Shown: in pieces, positions 2,881 through 27,491 of the stretch
Layout: each line of letters begins with the position of its first letter
Position numbering within the stretch: the stretch's first letter is position 1
Assembly (NCBI GenBank): GCA_051362555.1
Contig: CM120641.1
Coordinates: 11,966,001-12,030,000, forward strand
Direction of reading: 5' to 3'
DNA from: Lingula anatina
Lineage: Eukaryota > Animalia > Brachiopoda
DNA length: 64,000 nt
Position numbers and translations under genes: made by a program
Notes under the pieces: generated by a model
Told to the model about the DNA's origin: nothing
Databases searched by the model: none
The model's input: the letters and a program-made list of their open reading frames with translations, nothing else

Positions 2881-5800
2881 TGGTCATGAAGATATGCGTT
2901 GAAGCATATCAGGTAGAAGTACCGCTCCAGATATCTCTTACAGCGATTGTGGAATCGCAGTCTTGCGCTTTCACCCTGATAGAAAGCAAAAAATGAAACA
3001 TACGAGGAATTTAGTTTCTGTGAGTCAAAGAAAGTCGGTGAAAAGTTGGCGTAAAACGCCACAAACAATAAATGTTGAATTATATCCATTATATCCGTAA
3101 AATTCTAAGCTTATTAACAGATTTTGTCAGTTTATTTTACTTTTTTATATCATGAATAAGAAAAACACTCGTAGGAAAATGCATGTGCATGCGTGCGTGT
3201 GTGTGTGTGTGTGTGTGTGTGACTGAATTCCTCACAGATATCTTACATCGACCGTGTAATCTTCGGTTACATTTTCTAGAGTTTCTCTGGCGTCGTTCAG
3301 CTTGTCGATAAGGTGATGCAGTCTCCCACACATGTTGATCATGGTATCAACCTACTCAGAAAAAAACATCTTATGATACACATCGGTACACGCAAGTAAA
3401 GCTTTTAAAAGCTATTTCGGGACTTTAAGTCGAATTGACGACGCTGAGTATCCCGGTCTACTGATAATATTGGTGGAACAACTGCTAGTCTTGTTATGTT
3501 ATCTTCGCGGCAAATGTGTGACCACCCTGACCCATATTTTACAGGTGGAACCTCCATCCCACCTGTTTATTCTCAGTAGCTCGGATGAATTTAACTCTCA
3601 TCTGATCATTCGGGATTCTACGAGATATGCGTGCGCCTGCGTGGTACTCAATTCTGCGTTCGCTTGTCTTCGTGCTCACACGTGCTCTCGATTATTCATC
3701 GATTTTTTATAATTTACGTGGTTTTTTAAAGACTGGTCATTCTCTTTTGTGAGAGATTGCTTGACAGACAATCTTTTGTACTATTTGACGCTGGTTTTTT
3801 AGCATGTCGTCGGCTCAGACCGGACTGCAAAGCGACTTAGTTGGCGCTATTATTGCTCAGGCTGAGGCAAGCCAGAGTGGCGCAGAGCGGGCTTCAGCAA
3901 AGGATGCTGGCTCAGAAAAATCGACTACCACAACCAAATCTAGTGGTAATAGGGGTAAAAGACTAAGAACCCCGAGCTCTGCTTATAGCAAAAGAGCAAA
4001 GCTGACAAAGGACGTCAGCTTCACGGACGGTGCAGGCTCCCATGGAAAAAACCTAAATTCCAAGGATGCGATTCCTTCGGAAACCTCCGTACACGAGGCA
4101 GATTCGGAGTCACGTGACGACCCGAACAACAAATCTAACAATTCGGCTACACATGATGGCAGCGCCCATGGTCCTAGAAGTAGCCGGAGCTCACGCTCGC
4201 ATGGAAACTACTCCAAGTCATTCAGTGACCATTCAGTGAGCTCTCGTGAGGTACAAAAAGATATGAACGACATGAAGGAGCAATTGTGTAATATTCAACA
4301 GATGCTAGCGTCTCTTACTCCTGTCGTATCGGAACTTAAACGTGCGTACGATGCTAGTATAAATAGCGACCAGGATGGTGAGCCCCCAGAGAAGAGACAG
4401 AGGCTTATTTTGTCAGATGATGAGGAATCCCTGTGTGAGGAATCTTACTTTCGTTCTACTCCTGCCAATGATGATAGTAATGCTGACAGTGATAGCAGTG
4501 ACAGTCCTGCTAAGGAAAAACCCTCAGAAAATCAGGTCAGTCAGCCTCAGGGCTTACAATGTTTGAAAAACATTTTGGCTGCAGTGACTAATGATGAAGT
4601 TAGAGGCCCGAAAGTTCATGATGATGTTGCTAAAATCATGAACACTGTTTTGTACAAGGGTATGCCTAAGGAAGTTCTGGAGGATATGGTGAAACTTTAT
4701 CACCCACCTGAGAACTGTACCTACATGACTCAGATCAAATGTAACCAGAGACTGTGGGGAACACTGAGACCTTTAACCAAATATAATGACAAGATAATGC
4801 AAAACTGGCAAACCAACATATTCCATGGACTTACACCCTTCCTGGAGATAGCTGATGCTTGTTCTAAACACCTTGAAGGAGAAGGAGATGTGCCTTCTCC
4901 TGAAACATTGCTAGCAAAGATGACAGACGGATTCAGCATCCTTGCTGCAGTTGTACATGACATTTCTATGTTTCGCAGAGAACTCGCCAAACCAGACATT
5001 AATGAGAAATACAAAGCTTTGGCTTCCCCACAGAATCCTGTCACCAAGGAGCTGTTTGGTGACAATTTGGATGCAAATATGAAGGATATTGAAGAAGGCC
5101 TAAAAATCTCTAACAAGGTTCAGAAGAAAATAGCACGCCCTAGACCCACAAATATCTTCTCCAAACCCAGGGGATTTCCTACAAGGGCAACAGCTCGCTA
5201 TGACAACAAAAAAGCTGGTTCTTTTTTAGGAGGGAAGAACCAGAGAAGTCAACAGAACAACAGGAAAAACTGGACAGGGAAAAAGTTCCAGAAGAAAGAG
5301 TATTAGGAAATACTCATGTAAGTCAACCTTTTGTTGCTGGTAATATAAAACAGTCTCTTCTTGAATGGCAGAAGTTGACTTCAGATCCAGTGATACTCTC
5401 TTATGTTGTAGGGGTCAAGTTAGACTTTACAGAACAACCTGTACAAGATTTTGAGCCTAACAGCTTAAACTTTAGTTCAGCAGAACAGCTTATTGTGGAT
5501 TCAGAAATTAAAAAATTGCTTGACAAAGGTGTCATCATATCCTCTAATGAGGAACCAGGACAGTTTGTTTCTCCCATTTTTCTCAGGCCAAAAAAGGATG
5601 GCACCCATAGGATGATTCTTAACTTGAGAAAATTGAACTCTTGTATAAAATACCATCATTTTAAAATGGACACGGTGCAAACTTGTCTAAATCTTATGAC
5701 TCCAAATTGTTACTTAGCTTCACTGGATCTGAAGCATGCTTACTACTCTGTCCCTGTAGCTCCAGAATTTCAGAAATACCTTAAATTTAGATGGAAAGGC

Positions 5801-8800
5801 AGTCTTTTTTCATATGTTGCACTTCCAAATGGACTGGCCTCTGCACCCAGAATCTGGACTAAGCTTCTTAAACCAGTTTTGGCACAATTAAGGTCAAAAG
5901 CATACATTTCCAGCATTTACTTGGATGACCTTTATTTACAAGGTGAAACTAAGGAAGCTTGTGAGGAGAATGTTAGAGAAACTGTGCAATTACTATCGAA
6001 ATTGGGTTTTGTTATTCATGAACAAAAGTCCACACTAGTTCCTGTTCAAATTATGGACCACTTGGGCTTTACCTTGAACTCTAGGTCAATGACAGTTATG
6101 CTCACTTCAGAGAGAAGGGCTAACATTGTTTCAAAATTAATGGACAGAATGAAAAAGCCTAAATGCACAATTAGGCAAGGTGCACAGTTGATAGGTTCCC
6201 TAGTTTCAGCTTTACCTGGGGTACAATATGGGGAACTACACTACAGGTCCCTGGAAATGGATAAAATTCTAGCCCTTAAGAAAAACAGGGGTAATTTTGA
6301 TGCACATATGATTTTTAGTAACAAGGCAATCACAGACATAGTATGGTGGATAGATAACATCAACTTGGCAAAAAATCTAAGACGCTCCAATCCTGACTGT
6401 ATTATTCAGACAGATGCATCAAAAATGGGATGGGGTGCAGTGTTACAAGAGTCCACAACAGGGGGTAGATGGCAGAAATGTGAAATGACTAAACATATCA
6501 ATTTTTTGGAACTTAGGGCGGCCCAGCTTGGGTTACGGTCTTTTCAAAAGGACATTTGTGGAAAACATGTACAGTTACAGATGGATAATACTACTGCTGT
6601 TGCATACATAAGAAATATGGGAGGCACCCATTCTAGTGAATGTAATGAGATCACCCTTTCTATCTGGAAGTGGGCAATTAAACACAACATTTGGCTCTCA
6701 GCAACTCACATCCCAGGTGTCCTTAATGTTGTGGCAGACAAACATAGCAGATATTTTAATGATAGGACAGAATGGTCTTTATCCCCCTCTATTTTTGAGC
6801 ATTTAGCTGCATTCCTTGGGAGACCTTCTGTTGACCTGTTTGCCTCCAGGTTGAATCATAAGACAGAACTTTATTATGCCTGGAAACCAGACCCCCATGC
6901 ACTTGCAATAGATGCTTTTCAGCAGTCTTGGTCTGTAAACTTAAACTATGCATTTCCTCCTTTCAGTATGCTGAATCAGGTCCTTCAGAAGCTGCAGACA
7001 GACCAGGCCGACATCTTGCTGATAGCTCCACTGTGGGCCACACAGCCATGGTTCCCAGTCCTCCTTCAGATGCTCTACAGAGAACCAGTGCTGTTGCCGC
7101 CAACACACAAAATCCTGAGCCTTCCGCACAAAAAAGGGGAGGTGCACCCACTGTCAGACAAGATGAGGCTGATGGCATGTTTGTTATCGGGAAAAGCTTA
7201 CAAGAAAAGGGTATTTCAGGCAAAACTCAAGACATTATTATGCAATCTTGGCGGACTGGCACACGAAAACAGTACAACACCTACATCAAAAAATGGATTA
7301 ATTACTGCACTAAACTCAATTATGATCCCTTTCAGCCAAGTGTGCCACAAATATTAGGATTTCTCACTGAACTGTTTGAAGCTGGTCTTAATTACAGTGC
7401 CATTTGCACTGCAAGATCTGCTTTATCAGCTTTTGTGCAACTGAAAGATTCCTCAACACTTTGATCTAACCAGCTCATCAAGCGTTTCATCAAAGGTGTA
7501 TTTCACAGCAGACCTTCTTTTCCCAGATACCAAACCACATGGGATACAAATATTGTATTAGCATACCTAGAGAAATTATCACCAGTTTCAGAACTTTCAG
7601 ACAAAGATCTAACACTCAAACTAGTTATGCTGGTGGCACTGATATCAGGACAAAGATGTCAATCAATTCATCTCATGAACCTTAAAACAGTGTTAAAAAC
7701 TGACACAGGAGTGGCTTTTTTAATTGATGCATTAGTTAAACAGTCTAGGCCAACAAAAGATCAGCCAATCATAAACTTACCTGGTTTCCCAGAGAACAGC
7801 AGACTCTGTGTGTTGAATGTGTTACATGAATATTTAATTAGAACTAGCAAATATAGAAGTAGTGGTGTTTCACAACTTTTTCTTAGTTACAACAGACCTT
7901 TTAATCCTGTAAAAAAGGATACGATTGCTAGATGGATAAAAACAGTCATGTTAAAGGCTGGAGTGGATACAAGTGTGTTTAAAGCACATAGCACACGTGC
8001 AGCTTCTACTAGTAAAGCTTTTGCTGCCAATATTCCACTCAGTACCATTTTACGTACAGCTGGTTGGAGTAACAACAATACCTTTTCTAGGTTTTATAAC
8101 AAACCAACAGTATCACAGAATACTAGTTTTGCTTTTTCAGTGCTTGAAAAACTGTGATTATGATTCATGAGAATATTGTTTGAGTTGCATTAAAAAAAAA
8201 AAAAAAAAAAAAACTTGTTTCAACAGTTCTTTGTTCGTGTTCACGACAGCTTTGAAATCTCGTAGAATCCCGAATGATCAGATGAGAGTTAAATTTAAAG
8301 ATTAAACGAGACTTACCTGTAAGTTGAAGTTTGATTGGAATTTAACTCTCATCTGGATCATTTGAGGGATTATACGCCCACCCTTATTTTCAGTTAACAC
8401 CCACCCTTCTTCCTTTGTTGCCGTGAACACTCAACTTTAAAGATTGAGTACCACGCAGGCGCACGCATATCTCGTATAATCCCTCAAATGATCCAGATGA
8501 GAGTTAAATTCCAATCAAACTTCAACTTACAGGTAAGTCTCGTTTAATCTTTAAAGTTTCCGAGTGGGAGGCGGAACGTCATTAGTTAGACTAAATTAAT
8601 AAGTCCAGTAATAGCTTAAAAAAAGCTTTTACCTGTGTAACATACGACTGGGTGACGTATCTTCACAGGCCAAGGGATTTAGAGGATTTTTAGGTCGTGT
8701 TCACAATCAAAGCTTTCAATTAAAATACGTAAGTGTTGCAAATATAAAATGTTTGGGGACAGGTGAATAAGCACCATATTGTTAATGATTTTTTTTTCAA

Positions 8801-19755: not shown

Positions 19756-21250
19756 TGGTTCAAGTGTAAAATAAAGGCTCAGAATAGAGCAAAAAGGAAT
19801 ACTAGAGAAAAACCCAAGGACGAAGGCAGGTGATATGGGATGGTGGAGGGCGTCCAAATAAAAATGAAACAAAATCTAAGTCATCTTCTAGTGTAGCTGC
19901 TAAAACTGCACTAGGGAACAATGCGGGTAAATATCACGACAGCCAAAAAGCTGAATGACTTTTCACTGATGCAGCTCGATAGAAATAAATGCCAAAATTG
20001 ATCAAAACAATTAAATATGTGTGTGCCTAGATACACAGCGGCTAAGACACACACACACACACACACATATATAACTGCCATAATATAAAATTAATAAATT
20101 AATATGAGTGCAAACTAGGCACAAATGAAAAATTAGGCCATAGATGTGCGAGAAGCTCACATCCCCGCAGCTTTGTCCAGACTCGTGTCTGTTCATAAAA
20201 GAAAGTATACGACGATGCATTCTGATAGCAAGTAAAATCAAAGTGAAAATTTCCTGATGGATTCCGAAAATATCAAAAAATAATTGCTTTCTGTAAGTCG
20301 ATGGAAAAGAAATCGATGGCGGTCCTCGAATTGATTACCAGAAATCCCCTTGACGTAAGGTGCTAAATGAATTCCACCATAGGTGTAGAAGGGTGTGAGG
20401 ATGTATGAAGCCAAAACAATAAGCGGATCAAAATACATTCGAAACTGACCTTTTAATACAGGAAGGATAAAAATTGTATCAGAAGAACGTCTGGTTTAGT
20501 GTCGCAGGCCTTAATTGACTGTGGACACTTATGAAACGAAGGTCATTCATTCATTTATTATAGTGTTATGTGTTACAGTGTATATCAAAACACCCGGCCC
20601 TTGTAACTTTGCCTGAATCATAATGTTTGCATTTCATAGATCCACCACGGGAGTACATGTAGATAGATATGTTAAATCCAGACTGTTACAAATTGCTGTT
20701 GTTCCGTCCCAATGAATAATTGAATGAATGAATGCATGAATGACTGAATGATTGAATGAATGAATAATAATAATAATGATGATAATAATACATCAAGCAA
20801 TTAACAAACAAATAAATAAATAAACATAATGACATTAAAATTTTAAAGTAAGCCATTACCCATTTTATCACAAGAAAAGAGAGTAATTCAATGTTTATAT
20901 CCAATAGAATAGCGATCTCCAATTATGTTTACTCGCATGCGACTAAATTATTGATAATTTGGTTATTAAGGTTATCATTTATGTACAAAAATGGTATTGG
21001 TTTACATTGCATCACATATTATGAGCCAATAATAAAAATATCCAACTAGTATTTTGGTCTTATTCTGCAGCTTGAAGGTTTGCTGTGCATATTGGGAAAC
21101 GTCAGCCTTAAGCGTGGGTGCATGCTTTGCTTTTCAGTGCAACCACTACTTTCAGTACTTAGTCGTGTTGAACCAATTGAAAGACTCGGGGTATAAAACG
21201 TTGTGGCAAATTGATCTGAACATACGGTCTGGTCCAGGTAGAATGCCAAC

Positions 21251-22814
21251 ATGACTTTGAATAACCTTAGTGGCGATAGCTTCAATGGAACTCTTGCTAA
21301 TTCGGTGCATCTTACAACTACAGAACACATTGTTATAGCTGTAATTATGCTCAACCTTTCCTTTTTGGGAATGGTGATGAACGTCGGTGTGATTCTTACA
21401 TATATTCTGAACAAGGAGTTACAGAATTCTGTCAATATGTTCATAGCGTCATTGTCGGTTGGAGATGCTTTGATGTCGTTTTTAGCAGTTTTGGTGGCCG
21501 TAAATAACTTTGCCGAAGAATGGCTTTACGGGGATGCAGGGTGCACGTTTTACGCGTTTTCCATGACCTTTTTGGGTCTCGCCGCTATAAACCAAATGAG
21601 CGCAGTGGCCGCTGATAGGTACGTTGTGGTCACACGACCCCACTCAGTACTGGTTGAGAAACCAGCAGCAGTCACAACGATCGTCATATGCTGGCTAGCG
21701 GCGGGAATTTGGGCTGTAATGCCCCTTGTGGGATGGAGCTCTTATCAGCCGGAGGCAGATGGCACCCATTGCAGCATCCACTGGGAAACAGAGGATGAAA
21801 ACGCTAGAAGCTACATCATATCATTGTTTGTTCTTGAGTTTTTCTTGCCTATAGTTATCATATGTTTTTGCTACGGTAACATCTTCCACAAGGTAAGAAA
21901 TTGTTTTATACTGCACTGTTTAATGGGATATGGTTTATCAAGAAGTAGAATAACAGAGACGAATGGTGTTTCATATGGTTTCTGACTCGATACGACATTT
22001 TAAACATGACAATAATGACAAATTGATATTTGTTAATTGATTTTACAAATCCACGCTCCTTCTCATTCATGTGTTCGATTAGGTCTTGAATCATGCTTTC
22101 ATACGCTGTCATTAATCTGTGCACCCCAAAATCCAATGTTTATGTTTTTCATTCTGCTTCAGCCTAAAAAAAAACGTTCAATTTTACGTTTTTTTTTTTT
22201 TTGGTTTGGCATAACCGCCTATTTTCTTTTTATTTATTCTGTAAGCAAAAGCCAAATACCTGTGCTAAAAGACAAGTTCATGTTTCCAGATGTGAAGCTA
22301 AGTCTCTCACTGGTGATTTCTTTAGTGAACGCTCATTTCATCGTGCAAACCTTATTGTCCTCACGAACATCCCTTAATATTTGACGTCCTGGATTCCCAG
22401 ATAATTTTATATTACGATGCTCTTCAATGAAACACTATTTGTGCACATATTTGCGTCTTCCAGATGTTAACTGTTATTGACGACCAATATTGCATTTAAG
22501 TGCACAGTCGAGTTGTTACTCACACCTACTCAATAGTCCATGACCCAATGTTCTTCCCTGTAATGTTTTATTTACAGAAATGTTTTTCTTGTAGATATAA
22601 AAACATCCTTAGCTTTGTTTCTACTTTTGAGCAAGACATTGATCTTTTTTGAAGGAAAATCGTTTTTTGAAGAAAAAGGTTTAGCATTTCAGCAACTCGA
22701 CTAACAAGTTATCACGTCAAAGTATATTTCTGTCGCCCTTAACGTTCAATATCCCATTACATGTATTATTAATTTCATTGATAATTAAGACAATTGTATA
22801 ATATGGTAAATGAC

Positions 22815-22855
<41 letters not shown>

Positions 22856-25373
22856 ACGTTAAGAGAGCTGGAAAGGGAAATTCATAAACGAAATAATTAA
22901 AAAAAGACATTTAAGACATTTACGTCCAGAAATATAATAATTATAACCCGAGATCACAGGAGTCTAATGATCCCCAATGAAAAGTATGTACAGTTTGGTA
23001 TGCAGTGGTACATATTCCCCATATCAATTCGACAAGAGAAAGGCTGTGTTTGACGACCAGTCAGTTGCTTTCCACAAGAAGAAACATTTAGATAACAATT
23101 ACAGGACATCAGATTTGTGGTCAAAATGGAAAACCCTGTTTTAAACCCTGTTACGACGGGCTTTACGAAAAGACTGCAATATACATAATCCATTAACACT
23201 GATGTATGAATTTGATGTTGATTATAAAATATTGTCATAGTCCAAACTTCGATTTGGGGTGAGAATGGAGCAGTCACAGCCCAGCGTAACAGGGACTACA
23301 AAAACATATACATCTCACCCAGCAAACCTCTTAACAGGTACCCCCCCCCCCCCCCCAAAAAAAAAAATGTTATGAAAATAGATTTCTTTCACTAGATTTT
23401 CACAGATACTTCTCTGGCTACTTATTACGTAGGCTACACTTTTCTGCACTGTACTGCCCACCAGTTAGTTTTGCACATAATTGACGGCATCTGTCACTTG
23501 GGCTCTGGAAAAGAGTATCAGGGGACCGTGTATATATACGCACTTTTGAGAACAGACAGACGGTCAACTGGGATTTTTATCATATACAAATGGACAAACT
23601 TACCCACATACACATACTTGATGAACGAAGGCAGTGTAATTTAAAATAAAATAAAATTATGTCATCTTGTAAAAGAAAATTGTAAATACATGTATACCAA
23701 AAGATGATTATATAAAAATGGGGTTTACCCAGCAAGCACATAACGTTATTATGACGTTACCATAACGTTTATATAACCAACGTTATGGCAACGTTATAAA
23801 ACGTTATGTGTTTGCCGGGTTATTAGTCACTTGCATGATTCCGGGGCTAATCTTATAAGTGCTCCCGACCGAGATGAGTAGCTTAAGGTAGATCAATACG
23901 TAGGGTCTGTTACCTTATCAGCTTTGATAATGAAGAAAGAAAAAAAAGTGTCACGTTGTGAGTAATGCTGTCACATCAAAAATATCTAGTGGTGAATTTT
24001 CCAATTAGAGTGTGGTGAAAATTGTGTTTTCGATTTCAAACATTAATCCCTTTTTAATCACACACATAAGCACCACAATCTGGTGCCAGTGAATCATCTT
24101 GTGGGCTTACATCTAATAAACAAGTAAGATTAAAAAAAAAGTCTGGCACCGATCGCAATTCACACCCTGGTCGCCAGCCATGCCAATTTTCAGACTGCGT
24201 TACCGGGTTACGACGCGAACCAATCACTGTCTTACACCAATTTACAAAGTAGTTTAATTGACAATAAACGGGGTTAGAGTTTAAAAGCAGAAATGCGTGA
24301 GGTGGAGAATAATTAAAACAACGAAAAAAAAAGGATTTTTGCTCTTAAAGCGTTTAATTATTTCACAGTAATAACTAGAAAAGTATTTTACAAAAAAGGA
24401 AACGGTGGAATGGGTATTTTGACCAAATCCAAATCAGGCCACTTTTTACATCTAGCTTAACTCTATGGCCCTCTATTATTTGGGGCATTCTTACTGACCT
24501 ACTGTCTACTGACATGTTGTCTACTGTCGTTTTGTCTACTAACCTATTGTTGACTCACATACAAATGTACATCTAGCTTCTAGACTTTTAATTATAGATT
24601 ACATGTATACCGAACCTCGAACCAACATAATATGCATTTTTCATTCGAAGTTAATCTAAATATAGACGATACATTCAAACCAATTGTCGAGCATGTCTTT
24701 AAGTGTTTCCATATGCTTCTTGAAATGGCCCTTAACATATTGCCTTTTAATAACATAGCCTCTCTGGCAGTTGTCTCCAAGCTCCTACTTTGAGTATGGA
24801 AGTACATCCATGCTTTGAGATAGAATGAACGCCTCGATAATTACTTTCCTGTATGTCGCATACAGTGGACGACTCGTGTTGTAACTAGTGCTAACTGTTT
24901 ACGTCAGTTATACGTGTTGCAAAAGTTACATCTAATGATTGGAATGGGTCACACCCGTAGGCACTCCGTATTACGGTAGACTTTGATTAAATTGGTATCT
25001 GTTTGCAATAGCATCAGTTAGTAAGGTACCAGAAAGTAGGGCTTCGCCATACTTCGTTTTAATCAATAGCAGGGTGCAAAACTGAAATCGTGGCTAGTAA
25101 ATCACATAGAATATATTGTGTGGGCCGTGAACACAAAGAATCTCAAATCATGTAAGAACTCCTACTTAACACATTTTATATTTCGAATGCAGTTAGGTGT
25201 ACTTCATGATACAAACATTTATTCTATGGGAATATCGGGCAGACACTTGCAAGTCAATAAGATATATCGAAGTAAGAAAATAACTCCAAGTGGGCCGTAT
25301 AAATAATAGCGAAAAAAAAATCAATGGTACAGCAGAGAAAACAGATATTGGTTTATTCATTAAATTTCTGTTG

Positions 25374-25418
<45 letters not shown>

Positions 25419-27491
25419 TTGACTGAAAGCAGATGAAATATTGGATGGTAAGATCAGACAAATATTAGTAGCTATAGACAAAAGAATCTTCACAAGTCCA
25501 ATGATATTGACATCTACATATCCTTATGCAGACGAAGCAATAGAGGAGAGAAAATTGACTAAAGGAAGTTTCAAATACCAGAAGCCGTTTTGATATTTTG
25601 TTGTGAGACTTTTGCTCATTATAGTATTCCAGAAAAATTATCCACCCTTGGCAGGGTTCTAGTAGGCCTATCATGTCATGTTGGTGCAAAATCCCTTGAC
25701 CACAGAACAGAAACGTACACAGCTTAAGTGAATAACCAGAGAAATATCTGTGAATATCTAGTGAACAAAATTCTCTCTGTGGTCCTGGTGTAGAGTAAGT
25801 TTCTAGTTGAAACCTAGAAATATCAACTTGGCGAACGTCGTCAAGAAGTTCTTGTCAGCTAGGACAGCATTAGTAAAAGCAACCATAATGGAACGTAGTT
25901 TTTTTTCGTTTGAATATTGATAGTCTACAATATTGGTGGTCAACCTAGTCACTTATTAATTAGTGCACATGTACACGTAGGCCATTAAGCCATCCGCTCA
26001 TCATTTCATAATTCACTTACATCTTGTCAGAAACCATCCAGCCTATTACCAAAATATGTATGATCAAGTCTTTCCCTTATTATAAGTGTGCCTGCCTTTA
26101 CTTTTCTTAATGCTTGCAGTCAATTTATATCCAGCCTCTTATTTTGTTCAGTTTTGTGGATTTCAGTATTTTACCCATTTCTGGTCTTTTTCACAATACG
26201 TTATGAAAAGCATTCCAAATTTCTAATTCCAAACGATTCTATAATCATTCTGTAATACAAATGAGACAAAAACAACCAAGTCAAAGTAATAACACTCTGA
26301 CAAAAAGGAGCATGCGGCCTTTAGTCACGCAAAAGTCTAATAAAGAAAATGGAAACGCGTTGAGTTACACCTCGATACCTACGTGACGCTACAAAATTTG
26401 ATATACTTAGTTGATATATTTAGATATAATTAGAAGGAGAGTGGTCATCATTTTCTTCCACAGTCGTTATATGTACGTTCTGTATTTTTCTATTATCTCA
26501 GTTAGCTATAAGCCAACTTTCTCTCTAGTTTTGCCTTTCCATTGTAAAGGTTTTGAACAGATTTGTATGGCGATGTTAAAAAGTTGAAAAGTTCGGCACG
26601 TTAGGATTTTTCCTTATCCGCCTAGATAAAGCGAAATAAACATTGTCATGTTATGAGATAATGCTGTGACATCAAAAATAAATCTCCCTCACCTGAACAG
26701 CAATCAATACCTTTTAAACGTATAAGTACTACAATCCGGTGTCGGGAAAACTTCATGAAAACATCAATTCTGATTTCCTTAAATTTTAACATATCATACC
26801 CCTTAAACATGTAAGCCAGATGATTAACCATTCAGAATTTTTGTGAATGTATCTTGACTAAATAAAGCTTTTCTGTGTTTTCAGTTTAAGTTTATTGGAA
26901 CTAAGGTACATAATGAGAAAAGTACCGCATATCGCCGCAGAAAACGTGTAGAGAGAAGACTGGTCAAAGTGATATGTTTGATGATTGGTGAGTTTGGTTT
27001 GCATTAACTTTCATTATAATTGTTCTATGAAGCCACCAAATTAAGGTAGTTAAGTAAGACCTTTCGGTGAAAGCGGAATCATAACTGATACTGAATAATC
27101 AAGTAGACCACGTCATATACCTTGTGGAAACTTATATTTCCCAGGTTGTTTTTTGGCCTCCTGGACCCCATATGCGGTGTTCTCAATGTGGGCTGCGTTT
27201 GGTGATGTCACGTCCATACCCAGTTTGGCGCGCGTCGTCCCAGCTCTACTTGCTAAGCTCTCATGTGTATGGGACCCCATCATCTACGTTGGGGGTAACG
27301 CCCATTTTAGGACCCACTTTGTAAAATACTTACCAAGAATGCTTACCAGAAAGTGCATTGAAGAAGGTGAGGATCAAAGAAGAAGCGACAAAAGCAGAAG
27401 TTCATTACCAGTCGACGAAAGAAAGCAATGCGAACTCAAAGAAATCATAAAGGAAAATGGCACGCAAGATTTGAGTGGCGACGATGAATAA
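21251..27491 (+). CDS. Opsin (class A GPCR photopigment), xenopsin-like, 363 aa
   Basis: Exons 21251-21892, 26885-26987 and 27145-27491 join through GT-AG introns in matching phase (0 and 1). Seven hydrophobic segments. Motifs C110 (GCTFY), DRY, GWSSYQPE181..C187, SWTPYA, retinal Lys296 equivalent (ALLAK, codon 27255-27257) and WDPIIY. Opsin identity is secure; the subfamily is an inference. Confidence 0.92.
23728..23819. mobile_element. 92-bp palindromic mini-element with CCCAGC/CCGGG termini
   Basis: cccagcaagcacataacgtt pairs with aacgttatgtgtttgccggg. The interior consists of AACGTT units. Confidence 0.7.

Follow-up and report, generated by a model that had tools for sequence, protein, structure and literature searches.

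A DIRS1-like retrotransposon of Lingula anatina with a candidate -1 frameshift site and a predicted, phase-matched optional intron

A stretch of 64,000 nucleotides (nt) from the brachiopod Lingula anatina (assembly GCA_051362555.1, contig CM120641.1, positions 11,966,001 to 12,030,000 of the forward strand), hereafter the window, was analysed. A DIRS1-like retrotransposon of 4,969 bp occupies window positions 3589–8557, and its features all lie on the forward strand. It is proposed, with a probability of roughly 0.78, that such an element makes Gag, Gag-Pol and a fusion of Gag to the tyrosine recombinase (Gag-YR) from one gag start codon, by a ribosomal slip and an optional splice. The feature is real and conserved, and would be a variant mode of expression within a known family. 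An earlier reading of the letters alone (the original prediction) had put forward this three-protein scheme; when the sequence was re-read, its coordinates and phases were all correct, for the slippery heptamer, the TGA that precedes the pol frame, the first pol ATG, the splice donor and the splice acceptor.

Structure of the element and its predicted signals

The gag frame is open from 3789 to 5306 and holds a gag-like open reading frame (ORF1) of 500 amino acids (aa) at 3804–5306, with the ATG at 3804 and the stop codon TAG at 5304–5306. A Pfam search with this protein gave no match, and by tblastn it was similar to ORF1 of 40 of the 51 representative elements described below, the window included. 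The pol frame, in the -1 register to gag, opens past a TGA at 5201–5203 (ORF 5204–7357) and has its first ATG only at 5612. It encodes a reverse transcriptase (RT; RVT_1, E 6.7e-21), an RNase H (RT_RNaseH, E 3e-4 to 6e-4, under the curated cut-off) and then a candidate Dam-like methyltransferase (MT), which is a weak match in the window (PF05869, E 0.037) and a family recorded for many pol homologues. The recombinase (YR) exon, at 6967–8157, comprises a SAM-like domain and a catalytic domain (Phage_integrase, E 2.2e-8). This recombinase stands in place of a DDE integrase: at E 0.01 no integrase or protease family was found in the proteins of the element.

The YR frame of the window copy is split by an in-frame TGA at 7462–7464, between the SAM-like and catalytic domains, which the original prediction had missed. 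It may be an allele or a sequencing error, the read depth being low. Judged from its sequence, this copy could yield only a truncated YR and has probably lost the capacity to integrate. A poly(A) run was observed downstream of the YR stop, at 8192–8213.

The left terminus and inverted terminal repeat (ITR), at 3589–3652, begins with ATT; 3588–3626 pairs with 8257–8295, and 3612–3652 with 8443–8483. The internal complementary region (ICR) extends over 8257–8376, with the circular-junction AAT at 8292–8294, and the right ITR with its extension (8443–8557) ends with AGT. The inverted pairs I1, I3 and I4 and this order of ATT start, AAT circular junction and AGT end form the ITR/ICR pattern given in Table 3 of PMC3266345. 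According to the accessible parts of PMC3266345, PMC7192593 and PMC9210276, the gag, RT/RNase H/candidate MT and YR ORFs, the ITRs and ICR, the NTT start and the complementary circular junction are shared with DIRS1-like elements; the window element is of the kind whose pol and YR lack a long overlap. GTAAGT motifs are also present at 8319 (ICR) and 8533 (right ITR).

Three signals lie between these frames. Positions 5222–5228 read TTTTTTA, in the gag frame T TTT TTA, and form the predicted -1 frameshift site. It is followed in the pol frame by a transframe segment of about 30 codons (5229–5317), predicted to be common to Gag-Pol and Gag-YR, which ends at a 5' splice donor (5315–5323; CAT/GTAAGT, the slash marking the cut at 5317/5318) that is phase 0 in pol and lies 11 nt past the gag stop. 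The predicted optional intron of 1,649 nt (5318–6966) takes in the RT and the RNase H, together with the initial part of the MT region. Its 3' splice acceptor (6949–6967), read as ...TTTCCTCCTTTCAG/TAT with the cut at 6966/6967, has pyrimidines at 13 of 15 positions and overlaps the YAFPPFS codons of pol; the next base is phase 0 in YR. The window element also contains other slippery-type heptamers and other good acceptors. Taken in the window alone the signals are weak evidence; compared with 50 related elements, they go far beyond chance.

Conservation of the signals among related elements

For the comparison, a profile from 86 pol sequences was used; of 551 confirmed metagenome loci, the best 80 were taken, with 42–52% identity. 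Together with the window, 74 sequences had the RT N-terminus and gave 51 representatives below 85% nucleotide identity. Viral contigs were scanned twice, and no relative of the element was found in them. In most of these elements the heptamer, the donor and the acceptor are kept in the register and phase that had been proposed, with synonymous constraint.

Heptamers of the U6N and A6C types are the slip sites of HIV-1 and other retroviruses. In 36 of 45 elements one of these types was present in the frameshift register no more than 200 nt ahead of the donor; control windows in gag gave 3/86, and the other two registers 3/45 and 2/45. When up to 260 nt were considered, 40 of the 51 elements had such a site in the -1 register (TTTTTTA in 29, AAAAAAC in seven, TTTTTTG in three and TTTTTTT in one), and gag was in the +1 register to pol in 36 of the 40 elements with a gag match. 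The region from heptamer to donor is unalignable, even inside the clade of the window element. In the gag tail Phe-Leu was encoded as T TTT TTR in 30 of 31 cases (8/131 in pol), and therefore the constraint acts on the RNA. In 37 of 38 elements the pol frame meets a stop no more than 90 nt upstream of the heptamer, and in four of them that stop is the codon directly before it; between heptamer and donor the frame is uninterrupted in 38 of 40. No pol-frame ATG precedes the N-terminal RT motif in 27/45 elements. A -1 frameshift is supported by this register-specific synonymous conservation of two heptamer types, together with the lack of a usable ATG.

Folding of the RNA was scored as z against shuffles, in a model that leaves pseudoknots outside. 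The 50 nt 3' of the heptamer had a mean z of -1.3, and z was below -1.5 there in 17/40 elements, against 2/40 just upstream and 5/40 further down; the 3' regions of the relatives were not alignable for a consensus stimulator. In element L048, a possible H-type pseudoknot after the heptamer was noted by eye at about 2773–2810 (GCGAC/GTCGC with GACCG/CGGTC). Independent origins of the A6C site were considered and the claim was dropped, as parsimony gave four changes and supported branches forced just one.

Donor strength was scored by an approximate matrix. On this scale the top-scoring donor of the last 150 nt ahead of the RT motif was phase 0 in pol in 48/51 elements, with a median score of 5.3, against 116/306 and -0.1 in pol control windows. 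It was the top GT between 1 kb upstream and the acceptor in 30 of 42 elements, and the second in nine. In 41 of 43 elements it was found 2–41 nt past the gag stop (the two exceptions are damaged copies). It lies 12–84 nt before the RT motif, in an unalignable region of 39% mean column identity, and 1,613–1,898 nt from the PPF codons in 42 elements. Where more room exists, the donor was found at most 50 nt past the gag stop in 33/35 cases, against 22 expected. Such proximity to the gag stop may spare the spliced RNA from junction-dependent decay.

At the acceptor, the codon after PPF was AGY in 37 of 49 elements, TGY in eight and TCN in four. Serines at this site were encoded by AGY in 37/40 cases, compared with 7/41 at the conserved serine of FAS and with 21% of serines overall. 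When three frameshifted copies and one duplicate were left out, the YR frame was open for at least 150 nt in 31/34 elements with the AG and in 2/11 without it. An ATG ahead of the first conserved core motif was absent from 10 of 31 intact YR frames.

Joined sequences in relatives and RNA of Lingula anatina

The junction screen comprised 65 of 308 proteins (at least 400 aa) and 33 of 127 proteins (at least 390 aa); proteins shorter than these lengths begin at an internal Met and are unable to reveal the junction. The donor and acceptor sites had been predicted before the joined proteins were seen. In the Logan protein P0147, residues 1–39 correspond to the pol frame of elements L025/L018 and end at the predicted donor, and residues 40–436 are YR and begin at the predicted acceptor, so that 1,703 nt of L025 are skipped; three members of its cluster (P0247, P0250 and P0251) share this junction. 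P0521 (Logan, two contigs) carries gag, the heptamer, the transframe segment and YR in succession, joined at the exact L041 sites, its gag frame passing into the pol frame via a change upstream of the heptamer. P0449 (Logan, five contigs) and the gene models P0442 and P0443 fit the junction of L060, with just five residues on the donor side. The gene models P0450 and P0451 use an alternative acceptor at +12, the one listed for the L045 type, and the gene model P0299 has the same layout. The junction was thus found, at protein level, in joined Logan contigs of three families (L025/L018, L041 and L060) and in five public gene models. Joins exact to GT and AG point to splicing, whether the Logan contigs are RNA or DNA, and an exact donor-acceptor splice is supported directly in the sequences of relatives.

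Other models differ in the donor. P0254, P0255, P0437 and P0439–P0441 have the same acceptor and a donor inside pol; in P0254, P0255 and P0170 the splice to this acceptor lies just after the HIPG motif (window about 6700–6725) and gives a Pol-YR product. The post-HIPG splice may reflect a second donor or else an artefact of gene prediction. When long proteins containing Gag were searched for, one unrelated fusion model was returned, which is weak evidence either way. YR proteins of 870–1030 aa were considered as Gag-YR fusions and rejected, since most read as a YR frame that stays open over the full length of RT, as in DIRS elements with a long overlap. In such long-overlap elements (P0379, P0381, P0384, P0411 and P0415, with YR of 870–1030 aa) YR is probably reached by another route.

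Eight of nine raw-read RNA runs of Lingula anatina were mapped to the window copy, 6–30% of each run being used and three reads being the threshold for a joint. The reads were few: in X2 first-mate-minus reads cover gag and restart in the bin from 6967 with almost none between, and in X6 first-mate-minus reads lie inside the intron (6482–6772). A few reads of the opposite orientation were present at 5227–5540 in run X1. Many mapped reads derive from a truncated copy spanning 4915–5252; this diverged copy is transcribed within other sequence, probably antisense, and no heptamer difference was listed for it. In run X1, approximately 300 reads match nothing but a 35-nt piece of the left terminus (3591–3625) and continue into foreign sequence on both sides; the piece is a terminus fragment within an expressed host transcript. 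Elsewhere in the window, exons of a rhodopsin-family seven-transmembrane receptor, opsin-like by eye, were detected at 21242–27491 (PF00001, E 5e-38 and 9.5e-5).

Expression scheme and alternatives

Under the proposed scheme, unshifted ribosomes would make Gag (500 aa) from spliced and unspliced RNA alike, because they stop before the donor. A -1 slip at 5222–5228 on unspliced RNA would give Gag-Pol, of about 1,184 aa, and the same slip on RNA spliced of 5318–6966 would give Gag-YR, of about 900 aa if intact and about 670 aa in the window copy. The slip would set the ratio of enzyme to Gag, and splicing that of Pol to YR. DIRS elements carry no protease, as stated in the consulted part of PMC3783388, and therefore each enzyme would probably remain attached to Gag, with which it would be packaged. 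From the sequences we infer the fusion proteins, their packaging through Gag and the splicing of the window copy. Of the three-protein scheme as originally predicted, the splice is borne out by the junctions in relatives and the frameshift is supported by conservation, and the YR of the window copy itself is broken.

Several points weigh against this scheme. A U6N or A6C site is absent from 11 of the 51 elements: in four of these a different strict heptamer stands in register, four more seem to have been damaged by indels, one is a truncated element and the remaining two have no heptamer. The last two, L053 and L054, have strong phase-0 donors and may enter pol otherwise. The window copy folds weakly 3' of the heptamer (z -0.6 to -0.9), with no clear stimulatory hairpin, as the original prediction had cautioned, and 23/40 elements likewise lack a clear stimulatory structure. 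At the PPF site 12 of 49 elements lack the AG, of which 11 have an in-frame YAG further down. Since the elements are related by descent, the significance of the counts is overstated. The Logan contigs may stem from RNA or DNA runs, and the gene models are predictions. Finally, no joint was listed in any of the eight runs, neither 5317–6967 nor one ending at 5230, and each run had just 4–27 reads on the coding region.

The main rival is internal initiation on spliced RNA: the splice would be real, and YR and Pol would use AUGs of their own, after reinitiation downstream of gag or at an internal AUG such as that at 7048, the U-run being a Gag motif or a minor site. The ATG at 7048 is indeed present in the YR frame of the window, as the original prediction had noted, and has a good context; a pol-frame ATG precedes the donor in 13/45 elements, and this allowed P0147 and P0449 to be called as proteins; and L053 and L054 lack the heptamer. 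Nevertheless, the 27/45 elements in which no pol-frame ATG precedes the RT motif argue against it, as do the 6/27 intact elements with no ATG route to a full YR, and a Met equivalent to that at 7048 was found in just 12/41 elements, where it derives from Pro-Trp codons of pol. Moreover, amino-acid constraint cannot account for T TTT TTR in 30 of 31 synonymous cases, and the tie of the donor phase to the shifted frame is left unexplained. We consider own-AUG initiation unlikely.

A second alternative, raised in the original prediction, takes TTTTTTAG as a 3' splice site, so that an upstream intron, with no frameshift, would move translation into the downstream frame. A G follows the heptamer in 21/40 elements, and the gene model P0556, of a truncated copy, appears spliced from the equivalent of window 5119 to that of 5230 with TTTTTTAG as acceptor. 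Reads of the truncated copy cover 5120–5229 at a depth of 5–8 with no joint, though their origin is probably the opposite strand, which makes them a weak test of that model. Against this alternative, 19/40 elements have no AG there (A6C, TTTTTTAT, TTTTTTG or TTTTTTT), other candidate acceptors in the region are spread over all three phases (10/14/5), and the spliced P0521 is continuous through the heptamer. An upstream intron is therefore very improbable.

A third reading, in which the signals arise by chance or as side effects of protein motifs (the FL of Gag, the FPPF of the methyltransferase) and deletions account for the joined contigs, is equally improbable and largely refuted by the junctions in relatives: the acceptor does overlap a conserved MT motif, its AGY serines may persist by descent and no junction was seen in the low-coverage RNA of Lingula anatina, but the joins fall at a GT and an AG predicted beforehand in three families, the donor lies where mean column identity is 39%, and loss of the AG is accompanied by stops in the YR frame.

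The -1 frameshift between gag and pol of HIV-1 and of retrotransposons with a long terminal repeat (LTR) uses U UUU UUA or A AAA AAC. The element shares with these systems the heptamer classes, the register, a gag/pol overlap of short length, a predicted transframe peptide and, in some members of its family, a predicted 3' hairpin; it differs from them in that the transframe peptide ends at a donor, one shift would feed two enzymes and no protease is encoded. Spliced subgenomic RNAs are known from retroviruses and from gypsy and copia elements (env, foamy-virus pol, copia gag). There too, pol is taken out of the genomic RNA as an optional intron, and the same RNA is also needed unspliced. In the DIRS element, by contrast, the downstream exon codes for the integrating enzyme, and only a frameshift upstream of the donor would give access to it. 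Introns have reportedly been described in some YR elements by Goodwin and Poulter in 2004.

Programmed frameshifting has also been proposed for another YR retrotransposon, by Poulter and Butler in 2015, at the RT/RNase H-YR overlap of Ngaro (as quoted in the available part of PMC13003380); unlike in Ngaro, the shift in the DIRS1-like element would lie at gag-pol, and YR would be reached by splicing. The accessible parts of the DIRS1-like literature (PMC3266345, PMC7192593 and PMC9210276) mention no mechanism for pol/YR translation and no -1 site with a pol intron. Likewise, the scheme is not stated in the accessible parts of PMC7192593, PMC6681497, PMC3266345, PMC3783388, PMC13003380, PMC4157794, PMC9210276, PMC8547959, PMC9940879, PMC5718144 and bioRxiv 10.1101/2021.01.25.428050. 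Term searches of the literature gave no paper stating the combined scheme; key subscription reviews were outside reach, and an earlier mention is possible.

It seems fairly probable that, where animal DIRS1-like elements lack a long ORF overlap, most of them use one slip and optional splicing to choose between RT and YR, and that YR is packaged as Gag-YR. The spliced RNA retains both termini and the ICR, and therefore could be copied into pol-less daughter elements. The order DIRS is widespread in animals, although translation of the second and third ORFs of DIRS elements is left unexplained in the accessible literature that was searched. For annotation, YR ORFs drawn from internal ATGs, and pol-YR fused gene models, probably have wrong N-termini. 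If the scheme is true, YR acts as a Gag fusion, which would be relevant to the rebuilding of DIRS integration in vitro.

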